Assembly: GCA_050084515.1 (NCBI GenBank)
Contig: CM114271.1
Span: 26,908,001 to 26,972,000 of the forward strand
Length of the DNA: 64,000 nt
DNA from: Blasia pusilla
Lineage: Eukaryota
Direction of reading: 5' to 3'
In this document: positions 24,283-62,316 of the stretch, one piece after another
Layout: every line of letters begins with the position of its first letter
Numbering within the stretch: position 1 is the first letter of the stretch
Notes under the pieces: generated by a model
What the model saw: only the letters and a program-made list of their open reading frames with translations
What the model was told of the DNA's origin: nothing
The model's database searches: none
Translations under genes and position numbers: made by a program

Positions 24283-25679
24283 TGTCACATCTTATTTTGA
24301 CGTAGATAGAGTTCTATCGCGTCGACAACATAGAGAGTCAACATACTGTTTAGGTATAACTTCGTACCGAGATGTCGGGATGGATTTTTGGGAGGAGACA
24401 TTTTCTTATCGGCCAGGGTGGCGATTAGGTGGAGGATGGGTGAGCCATATACCGGTGTTGTTTGCATGGAGTAGTGGTGGTCGACCACGTGAGGATATGG
24501 TGACCACCTTGGCAACATTCACACGTGGTGTTAGCTGATTAGGAGGGTTCGGAGAGAGGGGCCCACATGCGGAGGACATTCCCGACGTTGATAGTCGCAC
24601 GGAGAGACATGCTAGGGTGGGTGTCTCTTCCCATGGTGAGGAGCTTCTTTATTGTTGTGGGGGACGAGCGTTAAGATGCGTGGAGTGGAGACGAGCTCGT
24701 GAGGCATGTGTGGAGCCGTGTCTATGTTTGGAGTAGGGTATGAGGGTGTTTGATCTCTTCGGAGGGATCAACACGGCGGATTGCTGCAGTGTAGCAGTGT
24801 TGCCAGGATGACGGCATCGACGGTGTTAGATGTGTATAGGATAGGAGATCATGTCGGGGACATATGTGTGTGCTATTTGGAGTTAGGGGGACTCAACTTC
24901 CAGCTAAGGGGGCGGTTGTGGGGTCCCTTTGTATATGTGTGAGTATGTTTCATTTATGTATGGATCCCGTATATTAGGGAAGATCGGTGTTGTGTGATAT
25001 GTAGATGTGACCAGCGATATGGGTTGTGTAGCAATGTGTATGCGCACGACAGTTGTCACATCTTATTTCGATGTAGGTAGAGTTCTATCGCGTTGACGAC
25101 ATAGAGAGTCAGTGGGCTGTTCAGGTGTAACTTTTTACCAAGATTTTGGATGAGGTTGGCGACAGGTATGTTGTGTGGGGAACGTGGTTCATGGCTATTT
25201 CCCTATTTTGGTTTTAGTCCGTCAGGTAACTCGTTGACCAAGTCAACGGTCACCCAATAACCTATGTATGCAGGTTACCATTGGTAGGCTATTTTTGGGG
25301 AAAGAGCCTTTTGGCTCTTCCCAAGGATATAAGAGTGAGGAAGATGGCTTTCCCAAGCCATCTTTCTCATGTTGAGCCTTAGGAGCGCCTCTCTTGCGTA
25401 GATGTGTGTGGGTGTGTAGGAGTTAGGGTGCTAGCATCCGGATTCCCTCATAGTCGAGGGTGGATGTGGTTCGATATGTCGATGTAGATTCATGAGTGGA
25501 GTTTTAGGCCGAGTGAGCTTTTTTACTACTCTTGATTTTGTTGTGGGGTCCCTTTGTATATGCATGAGTATGTTTAATTTTTGTGTGGATCTACCCGTAT
25601 GTTGGGGAAGATCAGTGTTGTGTGGTATGTAGATGTGACCAGCGATGTGGGTTGTGTAGCAATATGTATGCACACGACA
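24283..25679 (+). mobile_element. Internally deleted retroelement (family 2) with split direct repeats A1'-internal-B1-A2-B2
   Basis: Starts TGTC (24283) and ends GACA (25679). A1' 24283-~24380 matches A2, which starts at 25054. B1 24915-25051 matches B2 25540-25679. The internal remnant encodes MDFWEETFSYRPGW (post-protease region) and GMRVFDLFGGINT (methyltransferase motif I). No TSD is recognisable. Confidence 0.85.
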
Positions 25680-33156: not shown

Positions 33157-35951
33157 TCAAACATTCTTCTTCACTGCAGGCACGGCGTTCTGTCCCTTCT
33201 TGGTGTTGGAAACCTTGTAAAAGACGGACATAAATGCTCCTTCTGCTCCGTACCTGCAGACAAGCAAATCAAGCACGCTTCACCTCAATCGTTTCAAGAT
33301 CCAGGCGCATTCATGTACTGATCACTCTCGACAAACATCACATGTCGGGGATCACACACCGGAGGCACAATCCCTAAATCTTTCTCCTCGAGGTCTATGT
33401 AGTGCTCACGCGCGGATTCCCCACCCCACCCCAAACCAAAAACGACACCAATTGTTCAGCTCTCCTCTCCAGTAGTCTAGAGATCCGCATTGAAGAAGAG
33501 ATTCTGAAGACCTCGAGCTGATGCACATTGATGACGATACAAAGCGAGCCTCGACATGTAAGCAGCTGTTCATTTGACATAAGAGCCAGACTTGGTTCGA
33601 AAAGCGTCTGTGATGAACGGCTCATTGGACTGACTACCTTTGAGTAGAACGAAAAACTACCGCGAGAGATATGGAAAATGGTGGAGAGACTGGTAAATAA
33701 AGCTGAAGTCATGACAAGCATGCGAAATCGAATCTGAGGATAGTGCTGGGGGGGGGTGGAGATGGAAGAGAAGAGGAGAGGAGATTCGTGGGGATGAGAA
33801 CTTACTTCTTTCGCATTTGCGTGTACAACTTTGGGTCGAACATTCTCCAGAACTCCTCCTCCGTCTGCTCGCAGACTGCATACAAGCACTGGTACGAATT
33901 ATTGTCCCTCAGCCACTTCTCGATGTCTTTGGTCGCCTGAACTCCATCCCACACTTCATTTCGTAGAACTGGCCGGGGCACACCCCAAACCCCCACATCT
34001 GTCCACATTTGCGCATAATCTGTATCACCTGGTTTCTTCTCCTTGTCGTATCCAGCCTCGCAATCTAGCATTGTGCCGCATCCCGTCTTGAAAAGTCGGT
34101 GAGGACACAGCCAAACCGGGTAGGTCTGCAAAACAGACTGCGTAAGTGGAAATGTCTACACATGTGCGTCTTGTTGGCCTTGGAGCCTGAGCCTATCCGA
34201 AGGACAGCGATCAGTGGTAGCTCCAATTGGAATCCCTAGACGTATATTCGGTTGCCACTTTACTTCATCATATTTCATAGCCGCCCACGAGTATGCGGTC
34301 AGGCCAGTCTTCGCAGCTCGAGCAATGGTACCCTCTCTACTTCTCCTCTCGCTCATTTCCCCATTTCCTTTCGTTCATGTCCTGTAGTTTCGTATCTCTC
34401 TGTGCATATGTTTTCGTATGTGTTCCTTTTCGTCGGTGGGCTCCGTTTCTCACGAGCTAGACGCGTCTGGATATGTAGATGAACTCGCTTCGTGATCTGA
34501 ACAATTCTGAATTCCATTCGACGGAGGGGCTAAGATCTACGCACGGCGACTGGGATCCGTTCTGCGTTCGACTGCTCTCCGCCATTTCGGAGAGCGGGTT
34601 TGGAAAGCTGTCCGGGAAAGGAGGATCTGGAAGGTTGACTAGACAATCAGAGAGCCCATCTCCCGTCGATGAAAAGGGTTTAGGGGAGAACTCTGAGGAG
34701 GCTCTTGACATGCGATCCACAACCTTTGTAGAGCGAACGGAAGTGGAAAAAGAAGCAAAACAAAACGCTTTCCGATCGCATGTGGCCCAATGCCGAGATC
34801 AAACCGGGATGCATCACGCACCGCCAACCTATCGATTGACATGCGGACGTGTGGAGCGGTGGTAGAAGGATTCAGAGAAGCGGAATGGCTCGCATTTATG
34901 AGTTCGATCATGACTGCAGGTATAACGCTCATCGAGAACAATGTCAGTCACTCTCAAGTCAACCTCGTCACTGAAAGTTCTGATGAGAAAGCTCACCTCA
35001 AAGACCTCGTGGCAAACCTCCAGACTTTCTGCAACTTTGTGCTGCGGAACTAGCAAATCCTGGCAGGCATGTCTCTGTTCGTAGTATTTTCGGATCGCAT
35101 CGTTTTGCGTGAATTTCAGTATGCTCACCTGGCGACCAAACACAAACTCCACGCAATCAACAGATGCGTATTCGCGGCTTTAATGCAATCCCGCGATTCC
35201 CAAACAGAGTACAAGGAGCTTCCGACATTGACCGACACACAGAAAGCGCACGCACGTTCAGGAAGCGTTGGGGCGAAGGAGGAGGCGGAGGAGGAGGAGA
35301 GTCGTTCGGGCACACCTTCGGCGGCATCAACCATCCGAGAAACAATCGGAAGAGAGGATGGTTGCCGAAAGGAACGATGAGACCGCCTTCCCAATACAGC
35401 GATCGGGTGTGCCGATGGTAGTACTGTCGGATGGGGACATACTCCACAAACTCCCCGACTTTCAGGGCTTCCTCCGCATGAATGTGGAACCACGGCTTGT
35501 ACCACCAACCGAACCCATTGATCGTGTTCCCTTTAGCATGGGCCTCCTTCGAGCTCGCATACCGACCGGTGGTTACCACGGCCGCCGTCTCAGAGTACAC
35601 GATCCCCTCCACGAAATCTGGCACCTGCGATGCACGCCCTCACAAATCAAGACGCATGCTTGCTACCACCCACACCGGGTTGAAATGGAGAAATAGCTTC
35701 ACGATGACAGGGTCCTGATCTTGCCTAAGTTTAAGAACTTGGATATGGCGTTTCTTTTATCTCATGATCCCTCGAGCCTACGAACAGTTCAAAATTCCCT
35801 TCTGTTTCTGTCTCTGTCTCGGCGGGAATGAACTCGCAATCCTTGGACTTTTCCAGCTGCCCCGAATTCATCCTCGACCATTTTACGCTCACTCGCTGAC
35901 ATGGGAAGAGAATGAATAAAGAAATGAATTGATTTGCTTTCCACGGGGCGC

Positions 35952-35992
<41 letters not shown>

Positions 35993-36044
35993 TGAATAAA
36001 TGAAAAGATTTATCGTCCACGGGGACCCCACAGGACCATGGGAC

Positions 36045-36077
<33 letters not shown>

Positions 36078-36958
36078 TCCAAGGTCGTGCAAGAACCCCG
36101 AGGTATTGCGCTCGCAGAGGGGGAAATCGAGGCTACCTTGTCCGGATTATCTTGATCGAGATCTCGAGGACAGAAGGCGTCCGTGTAAACCTGAGCGATG
36201 TCCTTCAAGCTGCCAACAACGGGTTTGTAAGTGACGCGCATGTATTCCTTGACGGGGATGAGACGGAACTCGACACCCACGAGGAGCCCGAGAGAACCAT
36301 GAGACCAAGGAATGGCTTTGAAAAGATCCGCGTATTCGTTCTTGGCTGTCGCTCGGACCATGCGACCGTCGGCCAGCACAATTTCGAACGCAGTGCACGT
36401 TTCGGCGAAGAGCCCGTAGATGTGGCTGCTGCCTTCGATGCCGTATCCGTTGATGACACCCCCCAGCGTGAGATCATCGAGCTCGGGAAGGACTGCGGGT
36501 GCCAGGCCCAGTTTGAGAGTGGCGTGGCTCACTTGAGACATGCACACCATGGGCTCACATTTCATGAGCAATTTCTCTTCGTCGATCCACACTATGGACG
36601 AGAGATGGCCCAACTCCACCTCGAACCTCGTCGACCTCTTGTGTTCGCTGTTTCGCAATGCCACCCCTAGCCATGGAGGCCTCGCAGTGCATATGAGTCC
36701 ATCTACGCCGGGCTTCCTCGCGAGAATTCGCTCCTGTACTCGCTCGATCGCAGCTTTGTGGGTCTCCTCGGATGCGGGCCCGCTCCACAGCCGCTGTAAA
36801 ATCGGCTGCCAATGCTTCCACTGGTAGAACAGAAACGAGATCGGCAGGACGATGGGCACCACATAAAGCCACCTGAATTGCACGATAAAGTCTGCGAACG
36901 ACGACGGCCTCTTCTCTCGCTTCCGTTGAGACTGCCTCATAATTCCCGCAGTCGCCAT
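33157..36958 (-). CDS. DWF1: Delta(24)-sterol reductase / sterol side-chain reductase (DWF1/DIMINUTO family)
   Basis: Minus-strand exons 36958-36137, 35624-35316, 35128-34997, 34125-33806, 33253-33157 splice in frame. N-terminal TM segment WLYVVPIVLPISFLFY; FAD-binding ELDDLTLGGVINGYGIEGSSHIYGLF; PWSHGSLGLLV; YYHRHTRSLYWEG; YPVWLCPHRL; YGAEGAFMSVFYK. Confidence 0.95.
35955..36075. repeat. Two (GA)n microsatellites in DWF1 intron 1
   Basis: Runs at ~35955-35987 and ~36049-36075. Confidence 0.95.
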
Positions 36959-38945
36959 CAATTCGAAACGAGAAGCGTCCTACTATAACAGCTTCCGTCA
37001 CTACTATTCCTCCACAAGTCACACAATTCACAACCAGCGGAGGGCTCTCTCGTCCGTTTTTATATTCCCCTCATCACGAAGTACACACAGGCTCCGCATC
37101 GACGAAGTACACCTGAGAAATTTGAAAAAAGTGCCGGGCAACCACCGCTTTTGCCGTGGAACCTGCACCGGCTCCCTTTAACTCGAATGATGGCTGAGAA
37201 ATATTAGACGGACGTTCGGCCCCAGAAAGTGAATCACAGACTTGCACCTGTCTCGTGAACCGCAACCCGATAGGAGAGATGAAGAGGTCTACTACCCCTA
37301 CCCCACAACAAATAGTAATCCAACCGGGGCTTGTCTGTCTGTTCACCCGCCTGCCCGCCTCGCTGCGTGCCCCTCTCCCTGCCTACGGGTTCTCTTCTCT
37401 ATACTAGCCAGCGGCATTCGCATGGAAATGTGCTACAATCGATCGATCGATCGATCCCCACCCGCGACAGAGAAGGCTCTCCGGTGTGACGGACGCTACA
37501 GACGAGACCCAGAGTCCGACAGCCAGAAATGGAGAGGGACGGACGGAGGAGTATGAGGCGCGCCGAGAAAGACGAGAGTCGCGGGATTCTTCCGGATGGA
37601 GAATCTTCGAGCGAGCGAGGGCTACTTCCTTGGGTTACGTGTTTTCATGAGATGCAGCGACAATTGCTCAAGGGATTCCCCGCCTGGCCACAGCGCTGCA
37701 TCAGAGGCTGCTTTGTCTGGGTGCTGCCAAACACACACACACACAAGCAAGCTGGCTGGCTAGCCCGGCTGAGCTCGCGGAGGGAAGCGGGGGGAGTAAA
37801 GGAGGAGGAGGAGGAGGATTGCTGTGACAACTGTCCGCTGCTGGCCGTTACTAGGCATATGCACTATCTTGCAAGCATCGCGGCATTCCTTTTTTTCCAC
37901 CTTCCGTCATCAATTCGTCACCCACCTCTCCCCGTTTGATCTCCGTCCTCTCTGCCGCTGCCTCTCACGCATTTCCACCGGTACAGTACCGACACCCTCT
38001 CTCCCTCCCTCCCGGCTCTCTTGTGAAAACCACAAACTACTCTTCCTTTCGTATCTCTGATGGGGTTTTCCATCGAGCGTTTTTATTGAAGTTTATCTTC
38101 CCTCTTCCTCCTCCCCCGAATTCAAGTCGGCGACGCGTGCGCCATGTACGATTCTACCAAGTTGGCTCCCTTTGCGCAAACTCGCACTTATGTCGTCTAC
38201 GGTATTTTCATTTCATTTCATTCCTGAAAGTGCTTCAGGTACGACGTAATCGCGCAAGTTCCCTCTCGGATAGAGCGCTCACCTCCCGGCTCTCCGTCCC
38301 CGCGGCCATCGAAGGATTTCGCGTTACCGGATGTCGATCGGGGACGAGTGTGGACAGGGATGAAAACGTTCGTTGTTTGTCACCTCGCGACGCGACGACC
38401 AACATTCCTGCCGCGCGTGCTTCGGTGGGGAGAAGAGAGGGGAGTTCAGGGGCCCGAACCTTGCACGTGCTGACGAGCTCAAGCCTCGACGCCACCAAGA
38501 AAGCCTGGGGCAGTTGCTGCCCGGACGATCGTGCTGGAAGCCCAGGAGTGCTCGCTGTGCTGAGCTGGACCGTCCTCAACGGTATTTTCTTGCCGAGGAC
38601 AGTGGTATAGCACTACTCCCCCCACCTGCCTCTGTCTCTCCCTCCTCTAGGCCCGCTCCAGACTCCAGGGACCCTCCCTCCCTCCAGAGTCCAGAGCAGT
38701 GGGGGGATGTCTTAACTCCATCGCTAAAGTAGGGCTCTCAACGACTCTGGAGGAATACCCATGGACAAAGGCTGCGCTCGCTGAAATGAGTGAATGGAAT
38801 GAAGTGATGTGAAGTGAAATGAAATCATAGGAAGAACAGGATGAGGTGAGGTGGGCCCCAGCCGTGATTGCTATGTTTGTCACGGATAGAATGTGCGCGT
38901 CATCGCTCAGGACTCGAGAAACTCGTCGGAGAGTCGCCGTTGAAT

Positions 38946-47024: not shown

Positions 47025-48866
47025 CATGATCTTAACCTAGGAGATACTAAACCTTGAAGTGAACCTATGAGATATTAAATGTTTATCTCAACCGAGAAGA
47101 TACTAAACCTTTGAGCAATGAGTCCAACCTACATAAACAACAAGAAAGAAAATTGAAATGAGGTTCCAAGGAATAAGCCCAACTTGCAAAAATGTCAACG
47201 AAAAGAGCGAGCAAAAGTAAGAAAAAAACTCAAAGCTACACAACATAAGGAATAGATCAACGAGGAGAAAACTGAATGAGTTGGTTGCAACAACAGGGGA
47301 AAAAAAACACGTGGCTAGCCACTACCATAATGCCACAACTTGCAAGATGGGATATGAGAATAAAGTTGTGGACTGGCGATAGGCTATCTTCACTCCACTC
47401 TACTCTTTTCCTACAAGCCCTGAGCAACTTGTAGGAAAAAAGTAGCAAAGCAGAGACAATATATGGCTCCATGCACCCTAAAGGACGGAGATAAATGATC
47501 AAGGATTTGGGAACAAGCAAATTGACCCCAACAAGATCCTCAATAATGACCAAGACTAAGTGAATCTTTTGAATTTCTAGGAATCTCCATACGTCATCCT
47601 TGAACCAAATAGAAAAAAAAAATCAATGAAAAGACTTAGTGCGAAACGGAAAAGATTCACTATAGAAGCGAAAAGACTCGAGTTCTTAACTACTATATGA
47701 CTTTGCACTTTAGATGGCTAGTATGGAAAAAAAAAATCCTATGGCAAATAGACTCCGATCGATGTAGAAGATTGGAATGAAGCAACAAGAATAGAAATGC
47801 CAAGAACACCAAATGAGGGTGTCACATCTTATTTTGACGTAGGTAGAGTTCTTCATTTGATGATTTAAAGTTAGTCAACATGAAGCTCAATTAAGTGTTA
47901 GAAGAGGGGAGGAGATCTTAGATCCAAATATTTTTGGGAAACTTATGATATCTGCATGAGCATGAACCTCATTCAGTAACATTCATTCTAGAGAATGCGT
48001 TGTTTTTGGGCGACTCTCATCACAAGTGGTGACGAGTGTGCGTTAGGTTTATGCATGGACTAGACTGATAGAGTTATTGGATACGGCTAGCTAGTATACG
48101 TTTGCGTACGCATCGTCCACACCTCTGATGGATGAACTTGATGTTGCATGAAGTTTTGAGGAGGGTCTATGTGAGAGTACAAATACAACAAGTTTCAGGC
48201 CTTATGTGACTAGGCATTGATCGACCACCATATAGTGTGGCAAGATCATCTGGAGGTACGTGGATGGTCTAGCCAATCATGGTTTCTAGACTATGAAGAG
48301 GGGTTTATGCAAGTATGACATGCCACTTGGGAGATTGGATACTACAACTCTAATCGTCGGCAATGGGGTATAGATTTAGCTACAAGTATGCATCTTTGGC
48401 ATGCTAATCACCTTACTTTTTGCTCTACACTTGAGAGTTGGATTTACCTATGGCCATTTTTCGTGATGTTATTGAGGTGCTAAACCTCGGTAGGCTTGAT
48501 GTGTGGGTACAAGCATATTCCTAGAGATTGAAAACATTTTGGCAAGTTATGCCCACCACGTTAAAGAACCTAGTAATTGCACAACATCAAGACATGTTGA
48601 GTTATGCATCTATTTGGGGAGGATGGTATCAATTGACCATCTAGAGGTTCTATCCGAGGGAACAATGTCTACATAAAGTAGACAAGGCCAACAACTTTGG
48701 ACATGATGATAGGGCACATTATTTTGAGAGTAGGAGACATTTATCTAGTGTTCTTTTGTTAGAGGAGCATACTAGTATGGTTTGGAGGGACCAAATTTGG
48801 AATTGTACGCCATGTCACCTTGCCCAAATCAATGGTACTGTTGATCCAAGCTTGGCACTAGTACTT

Positions 48867-49234
48867 TGTCATGACCATACGGATTATGTCGTAGAGTATG
48901 GTGTGCTAGTAGAGGCCATTCCTTATGTAGGACCGTAGTGGATTGGTAGAGATGCGGTTCCATACATAGGGTTGGGGGTTACTCAGTTGGGGGTGACTTT
49001 CCCAGTAGGGCCCGCTCTTAGGTTGGAGGATATAAGGTGGAGTGCACTCAAAGAACAGTCAGTTCTTTGAGTTGAGGCTGTTGCGTTGGGAGTTAGCCTT
49101 GGTAGTGAGTAGAGCTCTTGGCTATGGTGTTTCCCTCAAGCTTCGACCTAGATTCTCCCATCGTGGAGTGGGTTTGGCTCAATTGTATGTGATTGTAAAT
49201 GTGTTTTATGACAGTAGGTCTTTCACGCATTTCA
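48867..49234 (+). repeat. Terminal repeat A1 (368 bp)
   Basis: Matches 58104-58471 with about 7 substitutions by manual count. Confidence 0.95.
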
Positions 49235-50959
49235 CTCAAAGAACTGGAGTAGATCGATGGTAGCTTCGATTGTAGATTAGGAGGATCTGGTTAGGGCTGA
49301 TTGTGTACTCAGCCGTGGATGTTCGGGGCTTGTTGCCTATGTTGGAGGTGTGAATCAGGTGCATGGTTGGTTGGGAAAGAAGCGCCTTTCTGAGATCTTT
49401 CCAACGCGCTGTAGATCGCCGGATTTCGTCAAGGGAGTTGGAAGTTATCAAGCATTGAAGATTCTGGTTTGTGTTCGACAGTTTTCTGATGTGGAGAGCT
49501 TGGAGTGCGGAAGCTCTGTTGAAGTTCATCCAGATCGGGTGAGAGGTTCCTATTGCTACTTGTATTGTGATCTCATGTGAAGCTATCTGCTCGAGTGCGT
49601 GGAGCGTTGCGGATTTCTGCGTGCATGAAACTTGGCGGAAGCGCTGTCGGATTTGCGGTTCTAGAGGTGTATGAACAGCAAGTTTGTCTAATTTTTAGCT
49701 CGGAGTACGGAGCTTGGTTGTAGCTGAGTTTTTGTGGGGAGATAGCTATGGTGGTCAATTGAATTCTGATTGAAACAGATTTGATTTCGGTCACGTATTT
49801 GTGAAGTAATTTCTGATCAAAATTTTGCGGACTAGCTCAAGGTCAGCGGTTTGGTGGACAGCGGATCGGAGGGGCTGGTTGGTTGGTGACTTGTTCATTG
49901 TTGGAGACGCCTGTCCCGTTGGGGGCGCCCTGGTTGGACCTCTCTCCATAGCGAAGCATGGCGAAGCATGGCGAAGCGTGGCGAACGGGGCATGTCTCGG
50001 CGTTTTGAGGCTTCGAGGCTTCGAGGCAACTCGTGGTAGCTCGGGGCGAGTGGGCGTGAGAGGCGGAGTAAGGAGTAAGCAAGCTTGGGCGTGAGGCAAT
50101 TTTTGCAGGATTTGGGATTTGAGTTTTGCATAACTGGTCATCCATCTTTGGGCTATTCTGCCTGGAGGACGCTTAACTGCTGAGTTCTTAACTATGCCAT
50201 TGTACAGACTGTTGTAGCTCATTTGGTGCTCTTCAGAGATGTGTTAGGCGCTTTATGCATCTCAGGTTTTTGGTTGATGTACCTCTAGCGCATAGTACGG
50301 TGTAGCCTCTCCATGCAGGTGATATTTTCAGGTGCTGCGAGTTCGACTAGTACGTCATCATCGACCGGCGGAGTAGCTATTGCGTTAGAATTGTGTGGTG
50401 GGTTTTGTGGATTGGGGCACCACGTTTGGTGGATTGTGTTACCTTGATTTCCATTTGCGGTTGGAGGGTTGTCGTTGGACTTCGTATGCGGATCCCCTCC
50501 ATCGTGCTTTTGCTTGCGCGCCCATTGTTAGGGTTGACGCTGATTTCGAGTAGTGTTACTCCTGTGTGCTCCGATAGTGAGGTGGAGTGATGACCGAGAG
50601 ACCATGGGAGGCTTCTTGTAGTGATGAGAGGTTAGATTGCCTACACTCATAGCTAGTAGAGCTACAATAGTAGAGCGACATCGACGTCACTTGGGTAATT
50701 TGGTGGTGGTGCGGCATCGGCGTTGGTCATCACGGAGCTGTCGGGTGGTCTGGTTGGGGACCGTGGTGCGGACAGTGGTGGTTTCACACGGAGTGGATTT
50801 AGGTATCGGCTACCTTTTCCACTTCCGACGGTTGATGAAGAGGAGGACCAGGGTGTTCCAAACACCGAGTCTTCTACGTTGTTATCGAGTGTTGCAGCTC
50901 CATTGATTTGGGACATGGACGGTGGATATGGGGCCATGAAGGGCCCACGACGATACTCG

Positions 50960-52110
50960 GTGCAAAGTGGGCACTATTGAGTTGGAGGACTTCATGCAGG
51001 AGTTTGATACGTGGTGTGATATGCAGATGTTGAACGCCACGCGTTGTTTACACCCTTCTTGGCTTGGAAGGGTTGTTTCAAAGACTTGGAAGGACCACCC
51101 ATGGATGATTACCATGAGTTTAGGAAAGACCATGTTGCTGAGATTGAGGCGTGGAGACAATATTGGTCTCCAGGCTATGTGTCTATCACCCATGGTGGTA
51201 TTGGTAGTAGTGCTCCTACTATGCCAGCCAGCCCGACGTTGAGTGGTACGAGTACGAGCCGGAGTGGGGGTACCAGTGGAGGTACTAGTGGGGGTACTAG
51301 TGGAGGTATTAATGCCCCACCATCGTTCAGCCCGGTTGCAGAGTTCTTCAAGAAGTTGAAGAAGAACTATCAAGGATTGAAGACGGAGAAGTTGAGGAAT
51401 CTTCAGGACTTTGAGCGAAAGACTGGTGAGAGTCTTCGTGAGGTATACACGCGTATCGATGCTTGATTTCATTACCAGGGTGTGACTGAGGATCAGCGAT
51501 CCGTTTTGGTATGGGATCTTGAACAGAGATTTGCGCCGTAGGGCGTGATGCTACTCTTATGAGTGATGATTCACCCACATTGACCCATGTGTTTGCTCTA
51601 TCTCGAGAAGATTGAGCTTAACATGGTGAAGGAGAGAGTGGTGACATCCGCATTCAGTAGGGATACAACTACTACTTCTCGGGTTCAGCCGCCCACCTCA
51701 CAGTCTCGTAGTAGTGGTGGTGGTAGTAGTAGTGGGAGTCGTGGGGGGTACACGCGACCTCACTCAAGTCCTAGAGGGACATTTGTACAGAGACCATTGC
51801 CTTCATTTGCTGCCCCGCAACAAGGACAGTCATGTTGGACATGTGGAGGTGATCATGTTAGGAAGTTTTGTCCCCAAGAGGATGGGAGACGGACTTTGGA
51901 GGATGGGCCTCAGTCGGCCCCAACTCAATGTGATCATTGCGGGAGACTAGGTCATCCTCGAGAGCGTTGCTTTGATCTCCATCCCGAGTTGAGATCAGGC
52001 CGTGGCCGTGGTGGAGTAGCTCCGAGAGGCCGAGGTGGTAGAGGTGGTAGGGGTGGTAGAGGTGGACCAGTGGTTGGAGAGCCTACAGTGGCTACCCCTA
52101 CCACTACGAC
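50960..52110 (+). pseudogene. gag: gag (frameshifted in this sequence) with two CCHC zinc knuckles and an RGG-rich tail
   Basis: CWTCGGDHVRKFC, CDHCGRLGHPRERC, RGRGGRGGRGGRGG; capsid-like segment FFKKLKKNYQG...QDFERKTGESLREVYTRI. Confidence 0.85.
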
Positions 52111-52799
52111 AAGTCGACTATGGTGCCAGGATTGGCTTGATTGGAGCGGTTGGCTACTATGGCATAGATGAGGTTCGGGAGCAGGGCTTCCACCTCTTAT
52201 GGAGGGGATGATCTCTCTTATATGGCGAGTGCAAAGAAGTTGAGGCATCAGTGCAGATTTAGAGGAGCCACTCGGCGTCGAGCCACGTGGTGCTCTTGTG
52301 GAGTTGGACCCACTGAGGGGTGAGGTGGGAGGCGAGCTAGGCTTCCCAGTCATTCTTGTTGTCGAGGTGCTTAGGACTCCATCCATGGTTCCTACGCAGC
52401 CTATTGAGCCGAGTGGGGACAGAGGCATCTACATCGGCGTGTAGTAGACACGGATGCAACATCCAATGCAAAGATTGCGGATGGCAACCGGTGTTGGGAT
52501 CCCCATTTTTTTCGCCACGGAGCCGATGGCTTTAGGAGTTGACTTAGCTCCTGTATTTCGATTAGCGACCACGTTTGTGTGAACGTGGGGTGTTTCTTGC
52601 TACACGTGTTGAGGTGGATGAGGGTGTTGCGGTGGAGCGACCCTCTATGTCGAGTAGCATTGAGTACAGTGCTACTTGGCGGGCAAAAGAACGGCGAAGA
52701 TGGATGCATTACTAGCCCGGCGACCATTGATCGTGAGAGGCTCACACTGGTGTATGTATGTTGGACAACCAGAGTGGGATCTTCCGATTGGTGAATCCT

Positions 52800-53200
52800 A
52801 TAGACAGTGTATAGACCAGATAGAGTCTTGTTAGACTCGGTGCCCAACCTTGATGTTGGGAAAGGCGGCATGTATTGGTTTGGGTATTCGGAGGTCGAGC
52901 TTGAGCCTTGCCCATTCCAGATTCAAACATCACTTGAGGAGCCAATGATAGGTCTCAATTCATGACACGGGAAAAGTTTTCTATCTGATTGAGACCAGAT
53001 CATGCGACCGATAGCTCCCGGTTGGGAGTATCTGCGGTAGTCACATCACCGAGTCGTATGATGTACTAGTTGGAGGAGCGATTGTACCCGATGGGTTTTC
53101 AGATGGATTATCGGATCGAGACGGCGTCTTCTGAGACCTGGTTGGCAGTCCGGGATGGACGTATGAGCCAAGTTCTGTGAGATTTATTTCGGGGCTCGAC
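52800..53200 (+). pseudogene. Retropepsin aspartic protease domain (frameshifted)
   Basis: VLLDS(G)AQP at ~52824; YDVLVGG at ~53058. Confidence 0.7.
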
Positions 53201-53544
53201 CAGAGGGTCTTCCCCAACAAGGTGTTAGCATCTCGGGCTGGTTTTAGTGGAGTAGTCACTTGGCCAGAGACTTTTGGAGGGTAATGTTTCGCTATGGATT
53301 CTTCATGCATGAGGAGGTAGAGGAGGTCCCTATTTTTGAAGCAAAGTGGCATCCTCATCATTGGATGTGCCACTTTGGAGTTCAGCGGTGCACTACGGCA
53401 GAGGCGTCGCCTAGTGCAGAGGCTTGGTGTGAGGTGTTATACCTCACGAGGAAGAGGAGGCCCCACGGCGGACTCCTACTTCTGGTCGATTAGGTTATCC
53501 CCTTTGGATACTACACCCATTGTATGGCAAAGTATCCGCCGGAG

Positions 53545-54500
53545 GGCATTTGTGTGTTAGATCTCTTTGGTGGGATTTAGCACCTGGTTTGGCGGCAAGA
53601 TGTTGCAGGCGGTATTCTGTGCGGAGATACGTGTATGTGGAGCGAGATGAGACGGCCCGAGAGAGTCTCATCCCGACATATTGGTCGATTGATGCGGAGA
53701 TATCCGAGTTGTTGCCGCCATCGCCTATTGGGTGGGTACCGGCGTGTTTTTACCATCATTCATTGCATTGTTGGGGCGCAAGACCTTGAGAGGGTTGGTC
53801 CTGTGGATTTGGTGATTCTTTGGATAGCCATGTCGTGGTCATACACGTCCGGTCGTGGTGAGGGATTACATGACCCTAGGTCTCGATTGTTTTGGGAGAT
53901 GTTACGGTGTTACGACATCTTCAGTTCATCAGCACGTGCTCTAGCTTACATTCTCGAGAATGTTCCATTGTTGGGTGACACTCGGACCCGGATGATGGCG
54001 AGTGTTCATGAGGTGCGGTCTTGGATTGGACCAGCGGTGTTGTTGGATGCAAGGTCATGAGTTGGCTCGCGTGCACATCGTCCACGCTTGTGGTGGACAA
54101 ACTTGTTGCCTAGGAGGTTCTCGTCGAGCATATGATGCAGTGTAGCGGGATCCTCGCCTTACAGTGGATAGTATCTTGGATACAAGGCGACTTTCTCAAG
54201 TGGTGAGGGTTATTGATCGGTCACCCATGGCAGTGGTGAACCGTGTGGGCCAGCCTAGGATGGCACTACCCACATTTTTGAGTTTTCCCGCGTCACATGC
54301 CTACATGGAAGGTGGTCCTGGGCTTGTATGGGATTCTCATGTGCGACAGTTGGTGGAGCCTAACGTTGATGAGAGAGAGCGTGCGATGGGATTTGCTACT
54401 AGTGTGATAGCGGTTGCTTCTATTTCTGAGGCTTCACGACGTCATGTGTTGGGTCAGGCCATGGACCTGAATTGTTTGACTTGGATTTTGAGTCTTGGTA
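53545..54500 (+). pseudogene. C5 DNA cytosine methyltransferase domain (DNMT3-like) within pol, frameshifted
   Basis: Motif I VLDLFGGI (~53554); motif II YVYVERD; motif IV VDLVI..G(W>stop)PC with PC at 53828-53833; SRLFWE; motif VI YILENVP (ENV at 53956); motif VIII SRAHRPRLWWTNLLP (54067-54111); motif IX ERERAMGF; motif X RRHVLGQAM. All in canonical order. Confidence 0.88.
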
Positions 54501-54849
54501 TGGCGAGCAGCGTCGACTTCGGACTATGTCGTGGGTCTTCCACCCCGTGTAATGAGCTCGATGGCTACCGGGGCCGGTAGAGGCATCGGTGGAAGCGAGA
54601 GAGTAGTATTTTGCATCCTTGGAGTAAATGGGATGTAATGGTGGGCATGTGGAGTTGGTTGCTCATCTTTGGTGGAGGAGTTATTTGCTCGAGATGATGG
54701 TGTAGCTAAGGGTGTACCATCTTGTGAGGGGGTTATGTGCGACCAATGGCATCGTCCTCTCCCTCTAGTGTGCGGTGGAGGAGACTTGGGAGCCATTACT
54801 TGGGCCCAAGCTACGGGAGGTGAGAAACGACGCTGACACAGCGGTTCCT

Positions 54850-55600
54850 ACGTGCTTATAGGAGTTGTTTTGCCTTTAGCATGAAGGAGTTGGGTTCTCT
54901 GGTTGGACCCGGTATCACGGATTGATTTGGCTAGTGATACGCCAATCTTCCGTCGTCCCTACCGATATAGTGATATGGAGAGGGACTTGATTGAGTAGGA
55001 CGTTGGACCTTTTGGAGGCTGGATTAGTGGAGTTGTCGCATGGAGAGTATGCATCGCCCATGTCATGCTCGCTAAAAAGGATATGCATGGCAACTACACG
55101 GATAGGCGGATGTGTGGAGATTACCGTCTATCAATCGGCAAACCAAGGCCGATAGGTATGCCATGCCTACACCTGAGGAGATCTTTGATGTGGTGGGACA
55201 GCAAAGATTTTCAGATTTTTGGATCTTCGGGGATACCATCAATTGCCGATTCGGGAGAGTGACAAGGCCAAGACAACATTTTGGGGTGTCAACTCTCATG
55301 GCAAGGATTGTTTGTACCGGTGGAAACTCTTACCCTTTGGGTTGAAGAATGCACTGCCGAAGTTTCAAAGAGTGACGGACAGGATCCTAGCAGGGTTGGA
55401 TTTTGTTCGGTGTTACATTGATGATATCTTGGTGTTGAGAACACGGTGGAGGAGCATCGATACATTTGCAGATGGTGTTTGAGCGGTTGAAAGCTCATGG
55501 TCTACGTTTGCATCCGGAAAGTGTAAGTTCTTCCATGAGGATGTTGAGTACTTGGGTCATGTGATCTATCCGGTGGTTTGGGAGTTCAAGTAAGCAAAGG
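54850..55600 (+). pseudogene. pol: Ty3/gypsy-type reverse transcriptase (frameshifted)
   Basis: RRMCGDYR, YAMPTPEEIFD, DLRGYHQ, LPFGLKNA, catalytic YIDD at 55414. Confidence 0.92.
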
Positions 55601-55609
55601 TGGAGGCTA

Positions 55610-56200
55610 TTGCACTTATTCGCGTCCGTAGATGTGAGTAGAGTTCGAGCATTCATGGGATTGGCGAACTACTATCGGAGGTATGTGAAGGGATTTAGTG
55701 CTATGGAAAAGCCTTTGAACCAATTGCTGAAATCAGATCAAGAGTGGCATCGGGAGATGATCGGGGAGAGAGCTTTTGTGGAGCTTAAGGCCAGTTGGTG
55801 GCGGTGCCTATCTTGAAGAGACCTATCGAGGGTGCCCATTCCGATTACACACGATTGGAGTAGGTTGGGACTTGAGCGGTGTTGACACAACATGATGATG
55901 AGCACATGGAGTTTGTGGTGGCCTATGCAAGTCGTTCGAATAATGCAACGGAGTTGCGCTATAGTTCATATGAGGGAGAGTGCTTGGCAGTAGTGTGGGC
56001 TGTGGCACACTTTAGGTGTTACTTGTTTGGCACCCAGTTTACCCTTATTTTCGATCACCAACCGCTCAAGTGGTTGATGGAGTCGGACAAGCTTACGGGG
56101 GAAGCTTGCACGGTGGGCTCTTATCTTACAGAGTATGACTTCCAGGTGGTTCATAGACCTGGAGTTGCCAACCTTGATGCTGATGGGTTGAGTAGGAACC
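55610..56200 (+). pseudogene. RT connection and RNase H domain
   Basis: RAFMGLANYYRRYVKGFS, HTDWS, VAYASRS, YEGECLAVVWAVAHFRCYL, DHQPL, NLDADGLSR. Confidence 0.9.
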
Positions 56201-56589
56201 CATGTACTAGCCAAGAGGATACAACAGGGGCTAGATGGCATGGCGAGGTTGATGAGGAGATGGTGCCAGGTTGGCATGCATCCGCCTTTTTATGTTGGTT
56301 AGGGGTGGACTCTAGTATGGAGGACCACGTGATATCTTACTCTAGTCGAGGGTAGATGGCCACCTTGAGATCCTAAGGTTGGAGATGGTGGTACGGATCA
56401 GCGTGATATTCATGATGATGCGTTGGTGTTGGAGTTCCTATGGACCAGAGGATGCCAGGCATAGTGAGTGCCAAGGAGCGAGACCGTGTTCTTCAACGTG
56501 CTAAGAGGTATCGATTGAGGGAACACATATTCTCAGCGTGTGGGAGGATGGTAGAGTACGAGTAGTGCCACATTTGGCTCGAGAGAGCG

Positions 56590-57650
56590 CAGCGACATGC
56601 CCATGAGGAGTTGGGACATTTTGGGGTAAAGCGACGTATAGCTTACTCCTTGGCAAGATTGGTGGCGTGGCATGCATACTCAAGTGCAGCAGATTGGTGT
56701 CACGTTGTATGGTTTGTGACCGGTGAGGGCATCATTTAATGCCCCTACACCACAATTACACCCCTTTCCTATTATGGGGTTGGGTTACCGTTGGAGTGTG
56801 GACTTTGCGGGACCGTTACGTTGGTATGACGTCATCATCGATATGTGTTGGTGATGGTGGAGCACTTCTCCAAGTGGATTGAGTTGGTGGCATTACCGGA
56901 CAAGGCGAGTGAGGAACGGCGTATGCGTTCTGGATAGAGTGCTTAGTCATTTTGGTGCACCAGCTGAAGTCTTGACCGACCAGGGTCTGAGTTTCGGGTG
57001 AGTTTCAGGTCTTGTGTGACAAGGCGTTGATTGATCATCGGACCACGTCTCGAGATCATCCGAGGCGGATGGTTTGGCCGCGTGTGGTTCAGGCGGTGAA
57101 GAGGGCATTGCGCAAGTATGGCCTCTGAAGGGCATCTTGAGACAGGATATTCGGTTGTCATGGTTAGCCATGGGGTATAGGTTCATCGCCAAGCATCCTT
57201 GGCTTCCTTCTCACCTTATTTTCGTTATACGGCCGAGAGATGCAGACTTGCCAAAGAAAGAATTGTCGGGAGTCTAGTGAGGTGGTGAACCTTGATGACC
57301 CAGAGATGTGGATGAGGGTGTGTTCTCTCGAGCGGAGCTCTTCCAGGAGAGTTATGCCAACGAGCCTTTGAGAATCTTGCCATTGCTCAACACAGGGGAT
57401 ACGTTGCCGTATGCAACCATTCGAGGTGGAGGTTATCGACCATCGATTCAGAGGTTCCATGTGGGGACTATGTCTATTTGCAACAGATTGCCCGACAACG
57501 TTGGATGTGACGGCATGCCGCACTATTTTACGAGTCGCGAGGTGTTAGCTTCGGAGTTCTCATGTTAGAGGGTCGTGATGGAGTTTTTGGAAGGACCATG
57601 TGCGTAATTGTGCGCCATGTCATCTTCCAAATGTGGATGGTCTTGTTGAC
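56590..57650 (+). pseudogene. DDE integrase with HHCC zinc-binding domain (frameshifted)
   Basis: HEELGHFG...CMVC, WSVDFAGPL, EHFSKWIELVAL, HFGAPAEVLTDQG, DGLA...VKRALRK. Confidence 0.88.
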
Positions 57651-57683
57651 CCAAGCTTAGCCATGATACGTGCTAGCTTGAGG

Positions 57684-57825
57684 TGCATGTTGTGTGGGTC
57701 TCATTGGTAACGGCTCGTATGTTGGTGTGTGATCGGTGTTCTAGGGGTTGGCACATGATGTGTTTGACTCCACGTTTGGATGTTGTTCCTACTTTGGAAG
57801 GTGGGTTTGTCCTCGATGTACTTAG
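57684..57825 (+). other. PHD finger at the integrase C-terminus (two frameshifts)
   Basis: CMLC...MLVCDRCSRGWHMMCLTPRLDVVPT/GRWVCPRCT* gives the C4-H-C3 pattern with W before the last CxxC. Confidence 0.85.
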
Positions 57826-57995
57826 GAGAGGTAGATGACTTGATCTTTGCATGATATGGATTACGGATGTGCGACTAACGATGGGGCAACCTAGCACCCG
57901 GCCTTCGATTCGGGCACCCAAGAAGGTGTATAGCATGTAGTAGATGTATAGGGCTACCGGGAGTTAGAGGACCTAACCCTTGATTAGGGGGGCGA

Positions 57996-58577
57996 GTTGT
58001 GGTACACTTGTGTTTGTGGATACTCGTCTATGTTATGTATGTATGTGAGTATGGTATGTCGGCGATGTATGTTGTATGACGATGTGGGATTCGCACGACA
58101 ATTTGTCATGACCATACGGATTATGTTGTAGAGTATGGTGTGCTAGTAGAGGCCATTCCTTATGTAGGACCGTAGTGGATTGGTAGAGATGCGGTTCCAT
58201 ACATAGGGTTGGGGGTTACTTAGTTGGGGGTGACTTTCCCAGTAGGGCCCGCTCTTAGGTTGGAGGATATAAGGTGGAGTGCATTCAAAGAACAGTCAGT
58301 TCTTTGAGTTGAGCCTGTTGCGTTGGGAGTTAGCCTTGGTAGTGAGTAGAGCTCTTGGCTATGGTGTTTCCCGCAAGCTTCGACCTAGATTCTCCCATCG
58401 TGGAGTGGGTTTGGCTCGATTGTATGTGATTGTAAACGTGTTTTATGACAGTAGGTCTTTCACGCATTTCAGTTGTGGTACACTTGTGTTTGTGGATACT
58501 CTCGTCTATGTTATGTATGTATGTGAGTATGGTATGTCAGCGATGTATGTTGTATGACGATGTGGATTCGCACGACA
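57996..58577 (+). repeat. Right-end composite B1 (57996-58100), spacer att, A2 (58104-58471), B2 (58472-58577)
   Basis: B1 and B2 are near-identical 105/106-bp repeats. A G-rich tract agggggg(c)gag immediately precedes B1. Confidence 0.95.
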
Positions 58578-60709
58578 ACTTGTAGGCTTGCAGTACATGT
58601 TGTGTGGATTAGCTAGAGGCATAGCCAATCTACTAGTCTACGATGGTTGTTAGAGAGGATGGCACATGATATGTTCCATGCCAAATTTTTCTAGAAGTCC
58701 TCATGGATGATGGTTGTGCCCAGATGTATAAAAGATAGGTGGTTAGACATTTAGGCTAGTTTGAGTGGGATGGATGACAAGGCAATTAACGATGGGACCA
58801 CAAGAGCATCTGACCTTCTTGTTCTTAGCATCTTAGAGATGTATATCACACGTACAAAGAGACAAATGACTATATGGAGTTAGAGAGACGTAAACACCAT
58901 CGCGTCAATGGCATAGAGAGTCAGCGGGTTGTTCGGATGTAACTTCGTCTTGAGATGTCAGATGAGGTTGACAACATGTTTGTTGTGTTCGGAACGTCGT
59001 TTATGACGATTTTCCTATTTTGGTTTTAGTCTGTCAGGTGCCCCGTTGACCGAGTCAATGGTCACCCGGTAACTTGTGCGCGCAGGTTACCCTTGGTAGG
59101 GCTATTTTTTGGGGAAGAGCCTTTTGGCTCTTCCCAATGGTATAAGAGTGAGGAAGATGGCTTTTCCAAGCCATCTTGCTCATGTTCAGCCTTAGGAGCG
59201 TCTCTCTTGCATAGACGTGTGTGGATGTGTAGGAGTTAGGGTGCTAGCGTATGTTAATACCTATAAGTATTACAACTTCTAATCTACTTCTATGTGTCAT
59301 TTATAGTTCATCGGTCAATATTGATGCTTAATCCATTATGCTTGCCACTTCTTCATGACCACTATCTACATCACTTAAGGCCCAAGATACACTTTCACAA
59401 TGCATATATGAATAGCCCAAACCAAGAGGGAATTCATTAGGAACTAAACTCTCATAGGTAGAGTTTCAATCTCTCTCATGCTCTACCTCTTGATCAATTA
59501 CGTCTTGATCTCTCTCTCTCTCTCGATAGTGGGTCAAGGGGACCTCCCTAATCCCAACCTATAATAGTGGATCAAGGGAACTTTCCTAAATTATAAATTC
59601 AACTACTCAAAGTAGGTAACTTACATGAAATGGTAAGTTCCTCAATTTAACTCTAAATAAGCCCAAAACAAAGGTAATCTACACACTCAAGTTACTCTAG
59701 TCTCTCATGGATCATCTTATGACCCCACCCCCCACTCAATTACGATTGATTTCCCAACATAAGGCTTCTTAAATTTTTTTCTATCGAGTTGACATTATAA
59801 TCAAAGAGGAATCACTTAGAATACTTACAAATTGCTTGGAAAGACCAAATATTGAAAATTGAAATTGGGGAAGAGGGATGATTCACATAAAAAATTGGCA
59901 AAAATGGCTTTGATTAGTGTTGTAATGATCCGATGTGTATCGAATCCAATTTCAAGCAAGCTAGGAGGACCTGTTTATCTTTGTAGCACTAGCTACCATG
60001 ATTAAAGGGACACGACATATGTTGGAGGAACAAGATGAAGCACTCCAGTAGGAAGAGGGGTTTTAGCTCCGTTAGGGGAAGACATGACAACATAGTGGCA
60101 ATAATAACATGGAAAAAGATTTTTTTTAAAAAGAGGATGGATGGAATGAGGGTTGAATAGATGAATCTACTCAATGCAAGCTAAGAGGATGAAGTGGCTA
60201 TGTACAAAAATATATGACCCATGATCAATCACAGTCGCTCACCCCATTGTTTGCAACCAGAGTTTATTGACGCAACTTAGAAAAATACTTTGCTCATTAG
60301 TGATTGAAAAATTAAAGAGATTAAGAGAGAGACATGGACTTATTTTTTGAAAAAGAACAATGGAGGAGAACATAAACTGATATCGGGAAAATGGCTTGGT
60401 ATAATGATTTCACAAGTTTTTTAAAAAAAAACTAGTAATTCAAGAGTGTAAATTGGTTTTTTTTTTCTCTTCTAACTAATAAGTTATCCATAAGGGCGTA
60501 CGCACATACCCTTACTGGCAACTTATTAGTTAGAAAGACCTTCTCTTGATAATTTTCTATTTACTACGTGAGAGACATCTAAAAAAAAGAGGACAACAAT
60601 GCACGTGTGAGGCCATAAGGGAATGCATCCTCTAAACTAATTTAGATGATTAGAACAATCTCTTGGACTCTTGCAGAGATAGCATTTTATGGAACCGGAT
60701 ACTAAAAAT

Positions 60710-60740: not shown

Positions 60741-62316
60741 AGGGGAAAAACTTTTTCATCCTTTAAATCTTTGGTCCTCTTAATTTAACTACTTAAGTCT
60801 AACACATATCCACAATAGAAGAAGTTTGAAAAAATCGATTTTGAAGAATTTTCTGATCTCATCCTCTCTTAATAATATACTTGTATATACTCCTCCATAC
60901 CACCATACTATTAGGGGTTTAACATGGCACACAAGTCTATGGGAGTTTCATATCCACCATATGAAGGCAGAAACTATCATAAAGCAAGAGGTTTGGCAAA
61001 GGAAAACCCCGGTAAATAAGCAATATGGCGTAAGTCAATAGATGGTTTCGGATCCTCGTTGCAAAACGAGGACTACATGATCTTTAAGTCTAAGAGGTGA
61101 TATATTTTGCAAAACGAGGACGTCAAAGTCTTTCAATTTAAGAGGTGTTGTATTTCACGCAAAGTGCGAAGTAAATAGTCAAGGAATATGATTGGACGTC
61201 CGAAAGTGAGGAGGTGAACATCTTCCAAAAAGTCATAAACATCCGACTGCAAGCATTTATTGCCTGTAAGGGCAACTTCAACACGAGCAGCCTCGCCCGT
61301 CAAATGGACCTAAAGAATGAGCAAGAGAATTCAAACTCAAATTTCCGTGCCCGCACCCTACAACCGACCCTTCTACCCTACCATCGACATTTGATAACAT
61401 GCAAGAGGCTTTGATATTTATCGATCAAATATAAATTTTTCACCTGCCCAAACCTTGTTACCCGACTTATAGGCAATAATTGGGAATATCAAAGATCACC
61501 CTCAAAGGAATAGCCTAAGTGAAGGTATAAGACCCGAGATTAGCCTTTATTTTCTTATGGAAGAAAGGGGTCAACAATTTCATAGAGAGACTATAAAATT
61601 TAGAATTATGAAATACATTTATTACTAGAAACTAATCCAAAAAAAATGAAAGGAGAACTTGAAGCCCCTCCGAAATATCAAACGGGAAGTTAAAGAGCTA
61701 CCCATTTTGGACCCAAGAAAACTCCGCTAGGCAAGTCGAGGTGACCATGAACTCCCAGTTAGGGGATCTAGTAGTAAGATGTTTATATGTTTCGCATCTC
61801 CCTCCTCCGTCACCCCGCATGTCACCACCCTCTCCTCCACCATGTTAAGCTCAATCTTTTCAAATAGAACAAACACATGGGCCAATGTGGATGAATCATC
61901 ACTCACAAGAGTAGTTCAAAAATCCACAAATATAAGATGGGCAAGACCTCCCTGACCATGAATTAAATTCGAGATGCCATGGGGATGGCAATATGGAAGT
62001 GGACCAAAAGCCATCCAAGGAAGATTGTTTGGGGTTCCCGAAGGTCCGCAAGTTGTTCCTCGTCGCACAGGAAAGGACCGCAAGCACTCATAGTAATCCT
62101 CAAGGGCGGTTGCCATGGATTTCAACTTGCTAGAGGGAAGAATAGATCACCGATGGATAGAAAACAGCGCCAATGGACACAAAACCTCGGGTGAGATGTC
62201 TCACTTTACCGAAATCCAGAAGTCGCCGTTGTTATAAAGAGATGGGGATCCCCACAAAGAAGTCGCAATGGCGTAGTTGTCCCAACAACAACTACGCATT
62301 CAGAACATGCCTCCAT

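Follow-up and report, generated by a model that had tools for sequence, protein, structure and literature searches.

The closest described counterpart of the element reported here is KnitGypsy-Dnmt3 of Klebsormidium nitens, which de Mendoza et al. 2018 (PMC5890265) present, in the legend to their Fig. 4c, as combining DIRS-like repeats (A-coding-B-A-B) with Gypsy domains. The element analysed here occupies positions 48867-58577 of a 64,000-nt stretch of a Blasia pusilla assembly (contig CM114271.1, positions 26,908,001 to 26,972,000; hereafter the window, in whose coordinates, on the + strand, the sites of the element are given), and its family likewise has a Gypsy body, a C5 DNA methyltransferase (DNMT) in the polyprotein and DIRS-like repeats. 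According to the published account, the two agree in Gypsy domain composition, in a Dnmt3-type DNMT inside the polyprotein and in the repeats, and differ in host, a charophyte there and a liverwort-like plant here; the main-text parts of that account that were compared give no target-site duplication, primer-binding site (PBS), polypurine tract (PPT), palindrome or mechanism (PMC5890265). In the literature searched, the name KnitGypsy-Dnmt3 occurred only in de Mendoza et al. 2018, and searches on split direct repeats with an integrase or Gypsy, or on a Marchantia DNMT3 Gypsy, led only to the 2018 figure legend. When the DNMT region was used in a word-based search, 42 hits were obtained, of which the named ones were all from Marchantia and none from Klebsormidium. 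The layout is already known and the liverwort-type family is a new member, while the logic of its PPT and PBS, the palindromic site, the duplications, the exact U5/U3 joint and the derivatives with a single B were not found in print.

Ngaro, PAT and DIRS elements have the same A1-coding-B1-A2-B2 split direct repeats, with an internal B1A2 joint that equals the two ends fused, but they encode a tyrosine recombinase, whereas the present family combines 4-bp duplications, a PPT and a PBS with a DDE integrase and a reverse transcriptase (RT) closest to that of Ty3. To our knowledge, DIRS, Ngaro and PAT elements make no target-site duplication. An earlier interpretation of the stretch, made from its letters alone (the sequence-only reading), had called split repeats atypical of canonical Ty3/gypsy elements; the layout is borne out, though not as a novelty, a Gypsy case with a DNMT having already been noted in the legend cited above (PMC5890265).

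Two further systems resemble the family in part. Self-priming is predicted for the plant Tcn1 and TAR elements in the sections of Neumann et al. 2019 (PMC6317226) drawn on here, and Tf1/sushi and plant Tcn1 elements share with the present family the lack of a tRNA-type PBS and a site by the 5' repeat that is complementary, over 11-12 nt, to the predicted 5' end of the transcript; they have conventional long terminal repeats (LTRs) and a chromodomain, in contrast to the permuted repeats, PHD finger and DNMT found here. For foamy virus (PFV) and HIV-1, the portions used of three papers describe integrase cleavage of palindromic LTR-LTR junctions (PMC1180852, PMC1905944, PMC4372172), in which a DDE integrase cuts within a CA...TG palindrome composed of two att ends and so produces ends competent for integration, as we propose below for the present family. 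There, however, the palindrome is the U5/U3 joint of a circle and its cutting restores a normal provirus, whereas here it lies inside the predicted U3, and the U5/U3 joint stays in the integrated copy.

Repeat layout, target site and relatives

The element has the layout A1 (368 bp)–internal region–B1 (~106 bp)–ATT–A2–B2, with termini TGTC…GACA; its edges were set by repeat comparison, by the reading frame of the flanks and by a contig joint. A1 (48867-49234) begins with TGTCATG, finishes with CATTTCA and would contain, in this order, U3 sequence (its 3' part), R and U5, while A2 (58104-58471), also of 368 bp, differs from it by 7 substitutions (98.1% identity). B1 (57996-58100), the putative start of U3, finishes with GCACGACA, and B2 (58472-58577) adjoins A2 exactly as the end of U5 would adjoin the start of U3. 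The start of B is ambiguous by 1 base, a single A being common to both sides of the A/B boundary, and over ~106 bp only 1 substitution and 2 small indels separate B1 (57995/6-58100) from B2 (58471/2-58577; 95.6-96.3% identity). These alignments bear out the sequence-only reading in its description of a left end made of A alone and a right end made of B-A-B, here B1-ATT-A2-B2. Its view of the B1/A2 joint as the right end of the element fused to the left end also holds: the joint is the near-palindrome GACA-ATT-TGTC (58097-58107), a candidate integrase recognition site, and in relatives it is usually the perfect palindrome GACAGCTGTC.

The element is flanked by a 4-bp duplication, ACTT, at 48863-48866 and 58578-58581, which together with the TGTC...GACA ends gives the DDE-type integration signature that had been claimed for it. 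The duplication is supported by the continuity of the reading frame across the flanks and by an empty-site joint. In tblastn comparisons, the sequences to the left (48333-48863, integrase C-terminal region) and to the right (58585-58722, PHD region) matched residues 809-984 and 987-1032, consecutive stretches of the open reading frame (ORF) for RT, integrase and PHD finger of the fairly intact relative L051 (its ORF2). Removal of 9715 nt, the element plus one ACTT, puts both flanks into one reading frame, and the element is therefore cleanly nested within an older element related to it. Moreover, in one contig of sequencing run X1 exactly 6 letters separate 48859 from 58581, as would be expected if a paralogous site were unoccupied and contained the 4-mer once. 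The older host element is a diverged relative on the same strand, and the hit falls within its integrase/PHD region.

We compared the element with 80 metagenome loci obtained by an RNase H alignment scan (50-86% amino-acid identity), restricting self-comparison to the 46 loci of at least 6 kb and judging distinct sites by their flanks. Self-comparison revealed both the A and the B repeat pairs in L031, L065, L066 (the same site as L065) and L079, and a B1/B2 pair with a spacing of 453-496 bp in L003, L019, L023, L027, L053, L067 and L069; L025 has a shorter B pair of 50 bp, spaced by 414 bp. In L053 the pair lies ~2 kb downstream of the locus's own B1, whose direct neighbour is unrelated flank, and since the pair probably belongs to another element, L053 was counted as a copy with a single B. 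(From position 12261 of L053 onward, this single-B copy is itself nested in a similar element, whose RNase H coding region it interrupts.)

B-like segments were present in 41 of the 80 loci. Fourteen of these, representing 10 distinct sites besides the window, have the A/B junction and the terminal B (two, L018 and L080, with internal deletions), 19 loci (16 sites) end at B1 and continue into unrelated flank, three (L033/L035 and L040) stop before B2, and 5 were not assignable. In L033/L035 the palindrome of the B1-A2 joint has been deleted between two ATGAC motifs, one at the end of B and the other at the start of A, and in L040 (3361-3878) an inverted copy of A2 comes directly after A2, with the turn at the TATA-proximal hairpin, probably an assembly fold-back. 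Altogether, the main family is represented by 27 distinct 3' ends, 11 full (the window included) and 16 with a single B. At the other end, neither B nor GACA-NN was found upstream of A at any of 14 distinct 5' ends (13 sites among the loci and the window), and no conventional BA-genes-BA or AB-genes-AB copy was seen among the loci examined.

The 4-bp duplication is perfect in seven of the nine elements with both ends (ACTT, ATTA, TCTC, TGTG, TGTT, CATA and AATC; in the window, L010, L031, L041, L047, L065 and L079) and agrees at 3 of 4 positions in the remaining two, L028 and L008. The A–genes–B–A–B layout is the rule of the family and not a one-off. The sequence-only reading had proposed to check other copies for A..BAB and a 4-bp duplication, which the 10 further sites and the 7 of 9 perfect duplications, all from metagenome loci and the window, now provide; the mostly conventional two-LTR copies that it named as a refutation were not seen (0/14 5' ends). 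A single rearrangement or mis-assembly of a conventional LTR element (LTR = A-B or B-A) deserves next to no credence: the window holds a single copy and repeats are prone to assembly errors, which would allow for it, but 10 further sites and a second family show the same layout, and this together with the 7 perfect target duplications, the frame-continuous flanks, the empty-site joint and the 14 5' ends, none with a conventional LTR, already refutes it.

The family is very abundant in run X1 (organism A), from which 240,986 contigs were aligned, with a summed depth of 15,000-126,000 inside the element versus 27 and 120 in the flanking bins. Runs labelled organism B (X3) and organism C (X7) contain it as well, and an X3 contig of 315 nt reads from the B end through GC into A from 48867. 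None of the runs listed with the family is recorded as RNA; X15, a putative RNA run, yielded short internal contigs and odd joints. A 25-nt pattern of the A end had no match in a viral contig collection.

Coding content and predicted priming sites

Judged by its sequence, the element belongs to a very abundant retrotransposon family of the Ty3/gypsy type, of which it is a degenerate copy. It has no frame longer than 222 aa, and dozens of stops interrupt it when it is aligned to an intact relative. Its coding remains comprise two CCHC zinc knuckles of GAG (51833-51970; zf-CCHC in the relative L046), the GAG frame being broken elsewhere; a degenerate C5 cytosine DNA methyltransferase domain (53536-54505; tblastn to residues 935-1257 of L051 ORF1, PF00145 in intact relatives), in which an ENV-type motif occupies 53950-53973; a region at 54994-56355 that is matched by Pfam RVT_1 and RT_RNaseH and comprises reverse transcriptase, whose YIDD is at 55414, and RNase H, whose frame is open over 55876-56355; a DDE integrase with H2C2 zinc region and core, broken by stops and frame shifts (56602-57400; Integrase_H2C2 and rve in intact relatives); and, at the integrase C-terminus, a PHD finger (57728-57763) with a weak Pfam match (E 0.003) that is clear in L051 (E 2.6e-10).

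According to Pfam, ORF1 of the intact relatives L051, L052 and L046 encodes GAG zf-CCHC, an aspartic protease and DNA_methylase (PF00145), so that the DNMT lies between protease and RT, and their second frame encodes RVT_1, RT_RNaseH, Integrase_H2C2, rve and PHD; the C-terminus matches a PHD finger and not a chromodomain. Of the solved relatives, Ty3 Gag-Pol (E 4e-98), the Ty3 RT and the PFV integrase (E 2e-21) match L051 ORF2 best, and the nearest named proteins are from the liverworts Calypogeia, Riccia and Marchantia, the Marchantia set including DNMT+RT fusions. As for the features by which Ty3/gypsy elements are recognised, the family has the Pol order protease-RT-RNase H-integrase with a DDE (rve) integrase, short duplications and TG...CA ends, as well as a PBS by the 5' repeat, though not of tRNA type, and a PPT before the 3' repeat; it does not have two complete identical LTRs around the internal region.

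The split direct repeats, a hallmark of Ngaro/PAT-type elements in the parts consulted of PMC5890265, would agree with a tyrosine recombinase supplied in trans, that is, with a DIRS-like mechanism acting on a Gypsy body. We consider this highly improbable, as no recombinase matched by Pfam was found in the scanned ORFs of L051, L052 and L046 or in the three forward frames of the window element (stops read as X), and as 4-bp duplications and CA/TG ends are a DDE signature and a conserved rve integrase is present. The hybrid replication mode that the sequence-only reading had envisaged was overstated in this respect, no tyrosine-recombinase-like component being needed or, by Pfam, present.

A single in-frame stop divides GAG-protease-DNMT from RT-RNase H-integrase-PHD in L051 (5083-5085), L052 (4661-4663) and L046 (4509-4511), and its presence between the two frames in three fairly intact relatives suggests that the stop codon is read through; in other relatives from the database, the polyprotein is fused and about 2350 aa long. 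A1 and A2 of the window element are 98% alike although its interior is full of stops and frame shifts, and most defects thus probably predate the insertion, so that defective copies seem to be mobilised in trans. The coding strand is rich in G and poor in C and favours T over A, with a GC skew of +0.22 to +0.26 in all eight full copies measured (the window, L010, L028, L031, L041, L047, L065 and L079). Strand-specific hypermutation, considered for this skew and for the stops, was rejected, the same skew being present in all eight; the GC skew is a family trait and not damage to the window copy. The Gly/Thr/Ser-rich stretch of GAG is encoded by three 12-nt tandem units (51263-51310).

The sequence right after A1 contains no TGG-type primer site, in line with the sequence-only reading. 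Instead, ACTCAAAGAAC stands there (49234-49244), and it is the reverse complement of GTTCTTTGAGT, which starts 31 nt after the TATAAG box (49031-49036; TATA(A/G) at the same place in relatives). GTTCTTTGAGT (49062-49072) would represent the first 11 nt of the RNA, the transcript start being predicted from the TATA box only, and it is also the downstream arm of a hairpin, ACTCAAAGAAC-AGTCA-GTTCTTTGAGT (49046-49072), an inverted repeat that is kept in relatives. The predicted self-priming site is conserved with at most 1 mismatch in 13 of 15 A1 ends (8 exact), and of the other two one is degenerate and one is followed by other DNA. In the distant L051 the pair is ACTTGACAAGAA / TTCTTGTCAAGT, 30 nt after TATAAT, and its placement with respect to the TATA box and to the end of A is unchanged; both partners have changed and the pairing is kept. 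RNA folding from the predicted start to just past the primer site placed the helix in both the minimum-free-energy and the centroid structure, with a z of -2.7 for the window and -3.6 for L051. These observations point to priming of the Tf1/sushi type, and the conservation of the site and its covariation in L051 lend support to the earlier suggestion that priming might be tRNA-independent. The primer used in Tf1 self-priming is likewise 11 nt long.

On the other side of the internal region, the G-rich tract that had been noted before B1 is the polypurine tract AGGGGGGCGA (57986-57995), which adjoins B1. A G-run tract of the CTAGGGGGGCGA type stands directly 5' of B in 32 of the 33 rows with B after the internal region (the exception is L045), with one or two changes in some copies and with the same arrangement in the distant L051 and L071.

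Proposed route of integration

With a primer site after A1 and a polypurine tract before B1, the LTR defined by reverse transcription would be B-NN-A. U3 would then extend from B through NN over the first ~195 nt of A, the remainder of A would make up R-U5, and the termini of the complementary DNA (cDNA) would be GTTGTGG... and ...CATTTTCA. Measured against these predicted termini, the A/B joint is an exact junction of U5 end and U3 start in 10 of 12 distinct joints (window included); L003 has one extra base, and L027/L031 have a 20-nt filler. At the B1/A2 joint, GACA-NN-TGTC, NN is GC in 6 loci, giving the perfect palindrome, and otherwise AT (4 loci), AC (1), TC (1), ATT (window), GT (L051 and the second family) or GC (L071); the longer palindrome CACGACA-NN-TGTCA is kept in the distant L051 and L071 and in the second family. 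That the 2-nt spacer is remade in each cycle was rejected as unnecessary, since the changes from GC to AT, AC and TC would be transitions at CHG sites of CAGCTG.

The explanation that we favour, at slightly better than even confidence, is ordinary self-primed reverse transcription followed by integration through the internal palindrome of an LTR, with the cDNA termini joined to each other. It builds on the anatomy, conservation, target-site duplications and coding content of the copies, which could be read directly, and from these we infer the transcript start, the self-priming, the joined intermediate and the integrase cut. RNA synthesis would start ~31 nt after the TATA box in A1, and the first 11 nt would fold back onto the site after A1, so that the folded-back 5' end would prime the minus strand, as in Tf1, while the polypurine tract before B1 would prime the plus strand; the expected cDNA is BA-genes-BA, with B-NN-A as its LTR. 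Integrase would bypass the termini of this cDNA and act on GACA-NN-TGTC between B and A in the upstream LTR, cutting after CA on both strands, and the two ends so formed would be inserted with a 4-bp stagger. The cDNA termini, the end of U5 and the start of U3, would be joined to each other either beforehand, as a joint of the 2-LTR-circle type, or afterwards by end joining; in the latter case, the cut at the palindrome would free the terminal B fragment, the intasome would insert this B together with the main fragment, and end joining would seal U5 to U3. A circular cDNA is thus one of two possible ways to the exact U5/U3 joint. The integrated copy would be a BA-genes-BA provirus permuted by one B, i.e., A-genes-B-NN-A-B, in which the left LTR lacks B-NN and an extra B follows the right LTR through the U5/U3 joint. 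Copies with a single B (A-genes-B) would arise by deletion between B1 and B2 or by simultaneous use of both palindromes and, lacking a 3' R, should be dead.

The exact joint could instead be inherited from a template, if the genomic RNA read through A2 into B2 and the A2-B2 block were copied without end joining into a linear cDNA already ending in ...GACA. Such read-through templating is the logic usually proposed for split-repeat tyrosine-recombinase elements; here, the A2/B2 joint does exist in the parent and could be transcribed, and an extra B at the right end only (0 of 14 left ends) would be accounted for. We nevertheless regard this as improbable. At each of the 27 distinct 3' ends known for the main family, unrelated flank follows B2 or the terminal B1, leaving no conserved primer site there, while the conserved, covarying primer site is located after A1, and the left end would still need a trimming of 116 nt. 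Furthermore, identity between B1 and B2 is at least as high as between A1 and A2 in four of five full copies (L031, L065, L066 and L079, the reverse being true of the window, with 95.6-96.3% versus 98.1%), which suggests that both B copies are made from one template at insertion and fits one template per cycle. Of the models worked through on paper in which reverse transcription alone yields A-genes-B-A-B, none was compatible with the observed positions of PBS and PPT.

A sub-variant of the favoured explanation, rather than a full alternative to it, takes single-B copies as the primary products, integrase cutting both palindromes of a linear BA-genes-BA and A-genes-B-A-B being a rare by-product on which the family depends. 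The predominance of single-B sites (16 to 11) agrees with this, as do the target duplications of the single-B copies L010, L041 and L047 (perfect) and L028 and L008 (3 of 4). Against it, single-B copies have no 3' R and could not be reverse transcribed by the inferred route, and deletion between B1 and B2 explains them equally well, L041 and L069 having a common flank in two forms. We consider it unlikely as the main source of these copies. L041 (single B) and L069 (full) have ~95 nt of right flank in common at ~93% and are 87.6% alike internally, a pair that hints at deletion of B without proving it.

Several observations weigh against integration through a joined cDNA. A closed 2-LTR circle has two identical palindromes, and their random use predicts A-B-NN-A-genes-B copies in equal number; this form was found at none of the 14 5' ends, as against 11 of 27 3' ends for A-genes-B-NN-A-B. 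Either a bias toward the upstream LTR or a faster loss of the missing form through its 340-bp repeats must therefore be assumed. The upstream palindrome could be favoured because it would become double-stranded long before the downstream LTR is complete, and it lies 116 bp from an end; alternatively, the missing form might collapse quickly through its 340-bp A repeats and feed the single-B class, which the numbers of single-B and full sites allow. The same excess of single-B over full sites (16 versus 11) would also mean that most insertions are dead on arrival or quickly decayed. The only pair linking the two forms at one flank, L041/L069, does not consist of clean alleles, some X1 contigs have B-A joints without CA/TG, and repeats can cause misjoins in metagenome contigs, by which L040 and L051 look affected. 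Finally, the transcript start, poly(A) site, joined intermediate and cleavage are all deduced from the anatomy. In L051 (8520-9317 and 1-975), the contig order is genes-PPT-B-GT-A-PBS-leader and resembles a one-LTR circle or a tandem array; the assembler may have collapsed the repeats, or the circular or tandem form may be real.

Neighbouring sequence and meaning for the family

The window also contains a second, older family with the same kind of right end. Its right end at 24905-25679 (+) consists of a PPT, B' (24916-25052), GT, A' (25055-25539) and B' (25540-25679), and a 5'-truncated A'-B' unit lies at 10680-11086; the A/B joint is exact in both copies. The TATA-proximal hairpin of this family has different arms, GAAGATGGCTT / AAGCCATCTT, and the window contains three such hairpins, at 10751, 25340 and 59153 (7 matches versus 1.4 expected). 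No 5' end with a PBS was found for the second family in the window. Downstream of the nested element, homology to A' of the second family resumes at 58899-59248, and the older host element seems to be missing its B1 and the start of its A2. On the strand opposite to the element, a 100-bp fragment at 61816-61914 (-) shares 90% identity with 51551-51650 in the element's GAG region. Exons of host type are represented by a FAD_binding_4 domain at 35789-36979 (-) and an RRM domain at 1530-2075 (+), as in an intron-bearing eukaryote.

For annotation, the layout matters in that LTR finders assume two equal terminal repeats, and the family would be mis-delimited or missed by them; dating by LTR identity, counts of solo LTRs and calls of insertions would be wrong for a family that fills a large share of these genomes. 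Since the elements carry their own cytosine methyltransferase together with a PHD reader, they also bear on the interplay of transposons and host silencing in early land plants.

Taken further, the proposal would describe a DDE-integrase lineage that never integrates via its cDNA termini, has its att palindrome within U3 and makes every productive insertion from a U5-U3-joined molecule (a 2-LTR circle or an end-joined break), a generalisation that we put forward tentatively and hold at somewhat short of even confidence. If true, the provirus is permuted by one LTR segment, and the family is the DDE counterpart of circle integration of the DIRS type. The LTR made by reverse transcription would be separated from the ends used by integrase, the 2-LTR junction, normally a dead-end by-product, would have become a fixed part of the integrated element, and the family would offer a natural system for how a retroviral-type integrase chooses an internal palindromic site. 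If, in addition, the Klebsormidium elements are homologous, internal-palindrome integration would have been kept from charophytes to liverworts.

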